A stretch of DNA of 64,000 nt from sequence record OM386655.1; one strand, 5' to 3'. Positions 40,101-40,721 of this stretch are shown here, piece by piece; the first letter of the stretch is position 1; each line of letters starts with the position of its first letter. The DNA comes from Escherichia phage vB_EcoM_ESCO10. A program made the position numbers and the translations under genes. Below the pieces are notes generated by a model. That model did no database searches. It was not told where the DNA came from and was given only the letters and a program-made list of their open reading frames with translations.

Positions 40101-40721
40101 CGTGGACAGACTATTAAAGGTAAACCAAGTGGTCGTGCAGTGTTGAGTGCAGAAGCTGATGGTATTAAGTCTCACAACCATGGCGGCTCTGTTGCGAGTA
40201 CTGATTTAGGTACTAAAAACACCTCATCATTTGATTATGGTACTAAAAACACCTCATCATTTGATTATGGTACTAAAACCAGCAACACAACAGGTAACCA
40301 TAACCATAGCGTTAGTGGCAATACTGGCGCAGCAGGTAATCATCAGCACTCACAGACAGGTCCAAGAGGTCCTAATAATCAACCAACAGGAATATTTCCT
40401 AATGGAGCTACTCAAATTAGTGGAACCCAGGTTGTTTCTTTTGGCATAAGCAACGGTGTTGTGCCTGGTGTAAACCAATATATTGCAAAGTCATCGACAG
40501 AAGGTAACCATACACACTCTTGGTCTGGAACTACAAATACCACCGGTAACCATGCCCACACCGTTGGTATCGGTGCTCATAGTCATTCGGTCGGTATTGG
40601 TGCTCATAGTCATTCGGTTGCAATCGGGTCCCACGGTCATGGTCTTACCATAAATAGTACAGGTAATACAGAAAACACGGTTAAAAACATTGCTTTTAAC
40701 TATATCGTTCGCTTAGCATAA
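37173..40721 (+). CDS. 37: long tail fibre distal subunit gp37 (receptor-binding tip)
   Basis: 1182 aa; Gly/Thr/Asn-rich beta-structure; C-terminal His-x-His repeats (GNHNHS, GNHQHS, GAHSHS) as in the T4 gp37 needle domain; RBS AGAGG. Confidence 0.8.
   Translation: [1182 protein letters not shown]
40209..40279 (+). repeat. 30-nt perfect tandem direct repeat (2.4 copies) inside gp37 C-terminal region
   Basis: ggtactaaaaacacctcatcatttgattat x2 then a partial copy; encodes [23 protein letters not shown]. Confidence 0.8.
40553..40633 (+). repeat. three degenerate 27-nt tandem repeats encoding V/AGIGxHxHx units in gp37 tip
   Basis: gttggtatcggtgctcatagtcattcg / gtcggtattggtgctcatagtcattcg / gttgcaatcgggtcccacggtcatggt. 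Confidence 0.75.

Follow-up and report, generated by a model that had tools for sequence, protein, structure and literature searches.

Are near-perfect tandem repeats in a phage adhesin the trace of a fresh expansion, and do they mark a site where host range is readily altered? This question is raised by the long tail fibre of Escherichia phage vB_EcoM_ESCO10 (OM386655.1), of which a stretch of 64,000 nucleotides (nt), hereafter the window, was analysed. Gene 37 of the window (37173..40721, + strand, 3549 nt), an open reading frame (ORF) that aligns with gene product 37 (gp37) of phage T4, encodes a long tail fibre distal subunit of 1182 amino acids (aa), whose C-terminal region carries two arrays of short tandem repeats. 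A first-pass annotation had interpreted these arrays as recent, lineage-specific and slippage-prone expansions located in the receptor-binding part of the tip, and thus as a likely hotspot of host-range variation. The interpretation that we consider probable is a different one: each array would supply one side of a single rung in the fibre stem, within a long-stem layout that is old, and whose paired copies were recently re-homogenised.

The two arrays, separated by ~300 nt, are the only ones reaching a Tandem Repeats Finder (TRF) score of at least 50 in the whole window. The first (40202..40278, +; 2.6 copies, score 140) is built on the 30-nt unit GGTACTAAAAACACCTCATCATTTGATTAT, which, read directly from the sequence, occurs twice in tandem (40209-40238 and 40239-40268) with 30 of 30 positions identical, encodes one 10-aa unit per copy (aa 1013-1032 of gp37 for the pair), and is followed by a partial third unit limited to its first 10 nt (40269-40278). 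This duplication with its partial third copy stands exactly as initially described; a tandem copy of 30 nt with no mismatch is well outside what chance would produce, and a homology of ~17-19 nt recurs three times in the array. The second array (40566..40646, +) is composed of 27-nt units, the first two of which (40566-40592 and 40593-40619) are identical at 25 positions out of 27, with two synonymous differences, both encoding GIGAHSHSV. The third unit (40620-40646, AIGSHGHGL) has diverged (15/27 identical), and a fourth, more diverged one (40539-40565, TTGNHAHTV) precedes the pair. Three GIGAHSHSV repeats had been reported at first; two copies are retained here, the third being the AIGSHGHGL unit, and the array, although correctly located, ends 13 nt beyond position 40633, where it had been closed. 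An alternative-frame ORF (40231-40449, 72 aa) was dismissed as a by-product of the repeat.

Where do these arrays lie in the fibre? In T4, published descriptions assign residues 811-881 and 1010-1026 of gp37 to a knob, 882-1019 to a stem and 932-959 to a head (PMC9603124), the chain doubling back at the head to give a six-stranded stem in which seven HxH motifs (two histidines separated by any residue) bind Fe on the axis (PMC12609058; PMC9603124; PMC11705849); substitutions affecting receptor binding or host range map to head residues 933-955 (PMC5221442; PMC9603124). The C-terminal 260 aa of the window gp37 match chain A of PDB entry 2XGF (phmmer against PDB, E=1.5e-75) in two stretches, one corresponding to the collar and ascending arm, the other to the descending arm and C-terminus. 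This match and the alignment with T4 bear out the identification of a T4-type gp37 made in the first-pass annotation. A phage tail collar ('knob') domain (PF07484, E=8.8e-11; aa 934-981, 39972..40115, +), nearly identical to T4 residues ~816-863, is found directly upstream of the HxH stem, and HxH motifs are present on both the ascending and descending strands, on either side of a variable head, with 14- and 9-residue spacings identical to those of T4. The first motif (H1001-N-H1003, 40173..40181, +), at the base of the ascending strand, aligns with T4 H883-S-H885; motifs 2 and 3 (H1043-N-H and H1057-Q-H, 40299..40349, +) occupy the distal part of this strand, with the 14-residue spacing of T4 H915/H929. 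Motifs 4 and 5 (H1113-T-H and H1127-A-H, 40509..40565, +) were placed on the distal descending strand by gap-free alignment to T4, and motifs 6-8 are carried by the 27-nt array. The last 24 aa (40647..40718, +), which would return into the knob, are nearly identical to the T4 C-terminus, and in nearly all tips examined 29 residues separate the last HxH from the C-terminus.

The segment equivalent to the T4 head, and presumed to be the receptor-binding tip, corresponds to aa 1060-1106 (40350..40490, +), as deduced from its position relative to the flanking HxH motifs and from the T4 limits given in PMC9603124 and PMC5221442. HxH 1 and HxH 2 of the ascending strand enclose the 30-nt array, and the 27-nt array belongs to the descending strand, so both are features of the stem: the repeats precede the head-equivalent segment by 28-47 residues on one side and follow it by 26-43 residues on the other. 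Because the repeats are in the stem, while the receptor-binding mutations of T4 map to its head, they are, by analogy, expected to be outside the receptor-contacting surface. The location of the repeats in the metal-binding needle, already proposed in the first-pass annotation, thus agrees with the T4 alignment and the HxH positions, whereas their assignment to the receptor-binding part of the tip has to be abandoned, since they flank it. An AlphaFold2 monomer prediction of the 282-aa tip, based on a 51-sequence alignment, was unusable (mean predicted local distance difference test score of 46, predicted template modelling score of 0.20).

Alignment to T4 gp37, the check that had been suggested for this locus, reveals an additional 10-aa unit and an additional 9-aa HxH unit in the window. 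Eight HxH motifs are found in the window, three before the head (1001, 1043, 1057) and five after it (1113, 1127, 1136, 1145, 1154), against seven in T4 (883, 915, 929, then 966, 980, 989, 998). Counted from the head, they lie at 3, 17 and 59 residues on the ascending strand and at 6, 20, 29, 38 and 47 on the descending strand of the window, and at 3, 17 and 49, then 6, 20, 29 and 38 in T4; these distances imply one added step per strand, at the same level of the stem. On the ascending side, the window has two 10-aa units where T4 has one full unit, and on the descending side exactly one more 9-aa HxH unit, GIGAHSHSV being present twice in place of a single GIGAHTHTV. MAFFT misplaced the gaps of the descending arm, with a 5-residue gap and an apparent extra HxH in the head, a placement that was rejected as the gap-free alignment gives a clean 9-aa difference. 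The head equivalents also differ, with 47 aa in the window versus 28 aa in T4 (residues 932-959), and unrelated sequences. Of the 156 residues that distinguish the two proteins in length (1182 versus 1026 aa, as correctly given in the first-pass annotation), 19 derive from the repeat units, 19 from the larger head, and the remaining 118 sit in the shaft upstream of the collar; since the repeats supply only 19 of 156 residues, the excess length of gp37 is mostly unrelated to them.

To what extent are the two sides of the stem linked? HxH motifs were surveyed in 120 homologues from a 90%-clustered protein collection, 147 representatives at 50% identity, 12 annotated phages, and 153 loci from IMG/VR and GTDB genomes, which gave, once these four independent searches were pooled, 238 distinct tips. 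Among them, spacers of 22, 32, 42, 52, 62 and 73 residues between HxH 1 and HxH 2 correspond to 1, 2, 3, 4, 5 and 6 descending nine-residue steps, respectively, a rule that can be stated as 12+10n residues, where n is the number of descending 9-aa steps (1-6; n=6 being tabulated at 73), and the longer spacers are visibly built of tandem (D-L/Y)-G-T-K-x-x-S-x-F units. Eight of the 238 tips were flagged by script as departing from the rule, and seven of these fit on inspection: T4 itself, flagged through an anchoring artefact; two tips with an extra HxH inside the spacer (P0214 and P0221), once the two gaps are summed; and, by unit count, two tips that have lost HxH 2 (P0216, P0225) and two with a decayed HxH in the descending array (L131, L160). 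This one-for-one covariation strongly supports the idea that each ascending 10-aa unit combines with a descending 9-aa HxH unit into a single structural rung, and unmatched stems appear to be rarely tolerated, or rarely sampled. Such a rule was not found stated in the searchable literature, the nearest published statement being that the number of HxH motifs may scale with needle length (PMC12609058).

Several features of these tips deserve mention in their own right. The longest stems (P0167, P0219, P0202, P0205, P0212, P0217) reach 4-5 ascending units and 5-6 descending steps, with up to 8-10 predicted iron sites per fibre, and the shortest (L142, Rosenbergiella) has a single step. At least five fibre-tip copies are present on short contigs of the insect symbiont Candidatus Erwinia dacicola (L119, L122, L130, L131, L154), where the decayed HxH box of L131 (AGAH--TV) is consistent with decaying prophage remnants. 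Another set of GTDB contigs with the same match statistics (L093-L104, L137), assigned to Chromatium, Leeuwenhoekiella, Pseudomonas, Neobacillus, Paenibacillus, Shewanella, Kitasatospora, Bradyrhizobium, Desulfosporosinus and others, most likely results from contamination of unrelated assemblies by phage lambda DNA: the locus that was checked (L096) is 100% identical to lambda stf/tfa, and several of these contigs are ~48.4-48.5 kb long with a coverage near 1x.

Is the additional rung specific to this lineage? The same layout is encountered in lambda Stf (HxH spacings [42,14,48,14,9,9,9], the Stf loci having been confirmed as lambda at 100% identity), in TuIa gp37 (X55190; [42,14,x,14,9,9,9]), and in ten other T-even phages which, together with TuIa, display spacings of [42,14,55 or 56,14,9,9,9]. 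Lambda Stf, TuIa and the window all possess two GTKxTSSFDY units and two GIGAHxHxV-type units, and differ in their heads, the gap between the HxH motifs flanking the head being 48, 55 and 56 residues, respectively. The unit numbers are equal in 11 of 11 T-even relatives, and the 8-HxH long-stem layout, widespread in lambda Stf, TuIa, many T-even phages and prophages, appears to be ancestral, at variance with the lineage-specific expansion that had been proposed. The first-pass annotation had itself named identical repeat numbers in related phages, with no link to host range, as an outcome that would speak against its proposal, and the first half of this is what is found. Nor does the locus behave as a contingency-type tandem-repeat locus, with equal unit numbers in these 11 relatives and one one-sided variant among the 238 tips. 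A phase-variation locus was likewise rejected, as copy number is constant among relatives and the units are multiples of three, so that changes in unit number cause no frameshift.

The head of the window belongs to a family that includes phages 348Ecol098PP, G2469, JM17, C6, F27, slur03 and 172859UKE1, all with 8-HxH stems. These gp37 proteins share the head family and stem layout of the window, but only 80-85% nucleotide identity over the tip, and several of them are encoded by Mosigvirus or Tequatrovirus genomes, compared with a ~90% Dhakavirus backbone for the window. As a distant homologue of the window head is found on a 7-HxH stem (L016), and stems of different lengths occur within each of six other head clusters, the two features seem to assort fairly freely.

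If the two-unit arrays are old, why are their copies so similar? The identity of the paired units within a single genome is 30/30 and 25/27 in the window (for the 30-nt and 27-nt pairs, respectively), 30/30 and 22/27 in 348Ecol098PP, and 26/30 and 27/27 in phage 04086, the other T-even relatives showing 23-28/30 and 20-24/27. For example, the units of TuIa are more diverged than those of the window (27/30 and 24/27). Within the T-even set, an identity of 30/30 is restricted to the window and 348Ecol098PP, and nine relatives fall at 23-28/30. In a further 47 tips that carry two or more ascending units, the most similar neighbouring units match at 12-27/30, with a single case of 30/30 (L013), and no descending 27-nt pair exceeds 21/27. 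The copies of the window are therefore unusually young-looking compared with those of most relatives, in agreement with the first-pass annotation in so far as it took the perfect duplication to be recent.

Their composition suggests how this similarity could have arisen. The unit of the window differs from that of 348Ecol098PP at two sites, each of them changed in both copies. In G2469 and JM17, copy 1 starts with GTKN and copy 2 with GTKT; by this standard, the window has two copy-1-type (Asn) units and 348Ecol098PP two copy-2-type (Thr) units. The mean identity between paralogous units (26.1/30) is close to that between orthologous units (25.4/30), so the copies carry no position-specific signal. 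Taken together, the pair identities, the changes shared by both copies, and this equivalence of paralogues and orthologues indicate recurrent homogenisation of an old two-unit array, via gene conversion or unequal exchange, possibly through unit loss and regain, instead of a first duplication. The duplication can consequently be called recent with respect to its last homogenising event, but not with respect to the origin of the extra units, given the two-unit layout of the relatives.

Could the copies be so similar for other reasons? Selection on the protein or codons, acting without recent recombination, would be in line with the strong conservation of the 10-aa units, which recur in many tips of the family. 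However, identical amino acid units still differ at 2-3 synonymous sites in other phages (28/30 in C6, 27/30 in TuIa), serine and threonine codons vary freely between phages, so that synonymous sites are not invariant, and the two lineage-specific differences each affect both copies, which makes this explanation highly improbable. An assembly or sequencing artefact is scarcely credible: tandem repeats can be miscounted in assemblies, and nothing specific to this locus suggests it, while the copy numbers are exactly those that the rule of the family predicts, the ORF is uninterrupted, and the layout recurs in relatives sequenced by independent projects. A true and recent gain of a whole rung, in which a 7-HxH ancestor would have acquired one more unit on each strand through two duplications, or through loss and regain, has more in its favour, with both arrays near-perfect in the same genome, when relatives usually have only one array homogenised (as in 348Ecol098PP and 04086, above), and with a related head on the 7-HxH stem of L016. 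We nevertheless regard such a gain as rather doubtful, because it requires two coordinated events and a mismatched intermediate, and because the eight phages of the head family, window included, all have two units, with diverged copies in six of the seven relatives; this implies that the two-unit state predates this phage.

The hotspot proposal, in which recent lineage-specific slippage expansions in the receptor-binding tip alter host range through changes in copy number, appears unlikely. The rarity of 30/30 and 25/27 pairs in the family is compatible with it, the thrice-repeated homology of 17-19 nt constitutes a plausible substrate for slippage or unequal exchange, and one natural tip (L014, described below) differs from TuIa-like tips by a clean change of one 27-nt unit. 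On the other hand, copy number is identical in the 11 nearest T-even relatives, including TuIa, and in lambda Stf, the units are found in the stem and the host-range and receptor mutations of T4 in the head, a one-sided change occurs in one tip out of 238, and the presence of one head family on both 7-HxH and 8-HxH stems argues against a tight link between copy number and host range. That unmatched stems are almost absent, and that close relatives all agree in unit number, argues that one-unit changes are usually selected against, unlike what would be expected from a working host-range switch. A precedent exists in T4, in which duplications in gene 37 have been reported to extend host range to Yersinia (Tetart et al. 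1996, as cited in PMC7002106, PMC5221442 and PMC3157838). As described there, they resemble the window repeats in being in-frame and tandem, in affecting the C-terminal adhesin region, and in involving His-containing motifs. The repeats of the window are, in contrast, short units of the stem, placed before and after the head (aa 1013-1032 and 1132-1149, for a head equivalent at aa 1060-1106), which they do not include. The duplications of Tetart et al. 1996 (J Mol Biol 258:726) reportedly span the specificity segment, including residue 938, and are bounded by GxHxH boxes. A role of the window repeats as a host-range hotspot is possible but unsupported.

The existence and location of the repeats, their one-for-one covariation, the layout common to many tips and the exceptional identity of the copies are established by the sequence comparisons; the model in which the two arrays form the sides of an old, re-homogenised rung would interpret them as follows. 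In T4-type tips, each chain extends from the collar through a thin six-stranded stem to the head, where it turns and returns, and iron ions on the axis are bound by the HxH motifs of the three chains. Each ascending 10-aa unit (G-T-K-x-T-S-S-F-D-Y) would be placed alongside a descending 9-aa unit (G-I-G-A-H-x-H-x-V). With two of each unit where T4 has one, the stem of the window would comprise ~60 and 59 residues per strand, compared with 50 and 50 in T4, a predicted gain of roughly 2.5-3 nm, and its eight HxH motifs would provide eight predicted iron sites, against seven in T4. Adjacent units would then have been recently homogenised within the gene, through gene conversion or unequal exchange, in an array that already had two units.

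Three points weigh against this model. That 10-aa and 9-aa units lie side by side is deduced solely from residue counts and covariation, and gene conversion is indistinguishable from a cycle of unit loss and regain. In addition, the eighth tip flagged in the survey, L014, is truly off-rule, and the sole such case among the 238 tips: it retains both ascending units but is short of exactly one 27-nt unit on the descending strand, meaning that the match between units is not absolutely required, unless this contig is defective or misassembled. L014 (IMGVR_UViG_3300030021_000020, a 10.5-kb IMG/VR contig, locus at nt ~1200-1300) has a TuIa-like tip, with 90% nucleotide identity, and the unit lost is GIGAHTHTV. 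Slippage in nature, a defect of the phage or a collapse of the assembly could each explain this tip.

What does this imply beyond the window? For the window itself the consequences are small, as it offers a new allele of a well-known tip, with a layout known from lambda and TuIa. The model nevertheless leads to a testable rule, namely that stem length changes only by matched 10-aa and 9-aa units, and for the engineering of chimeric T4/lambda-type fibres this rule implies that units should be added or removed on both strands. It also calls for caution in the interpretation of perfect tandem repeats, which need not be fresh expansions and would here be old structural repeats that have been re-homogenised. 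A broader proposal, which we put forward as a tentative idea that may well not hold, is that stems evolve in quantised, two-sided rungs (from 1 to 6), acting as an adjustable spacer, whose iron load would vary and which would set the reach of the head through lipopolysaccharide, O-antigen or capsule, the near-perfect copies reflecting an ongoing coordinated remodelling that contributes to host range. That stem length may help receptor access through surface polysaccharide is a reasonable speculation.

The genomic context of gene 37 completes this picture. Gene 38 (40749..41291, +) encodes a 180-aa T4-type tail fibre assembly chaperone, 92% identical to T4 gp38 (phrog_105 'tail fiber assembly', E=4e-43). 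The distal fibre does not correspond to the T2/T6 type, as gp38 is this 180-aa chaperone and not a glycine-rich adhesin of ~260 aa, and as the gp37 C-terminus is of T4 type. In gp37, Pfam also recognises a gp37_trimer domain (aa 689-767), and no tip in the databases was found closer than ~84-85% at the DNA level or 81% at the protein level. On the basis of the 2XGF and Pfam matches, the T4-type gp38 neighbour and the absence of a closer database tip, gp37 is best described as a new allele of the T4-type fibre tip, a T2-type arrangement with a gp38 adhesin being excluded at the level of sequence comparison. The gene is a mosaic: its first 1863 nt share 93.7% identity with phage VR20, its middle part most resembles TH57 and Ge15 (83-85%), and for its tip the nearest matches are Mosigvirus and Dhakavirus phages (84-85%). 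The flanking genome shares ~90% identity with Dhakavirus-type T-even phages; no record exceeds ~90% identity across the 12-kb flank, nor ~94% for any stretch of gp37 or flank compared, and the phage probably represents an unsampled species-level lineage for this reason.

Two further observations concern the borders of neighbouring genes. A GC-rich hairpin, AGAGGGGC-UUCG-GCCCCUUCU (40724..40744, +), is located between the stop of gene 37 and the start of gene 38, with a folding energy of -15.6 kcal/mol (z=-2.2), and the annotation of phage G2469 has a putative terminator at this position. Upstream, the gene 35 homologue begins at 35293, in another frame and before gene 34 has ended (35311), which makes an overlap of 19 nt, whereas genes 34 and 35 of T4 are 8 nt apart.

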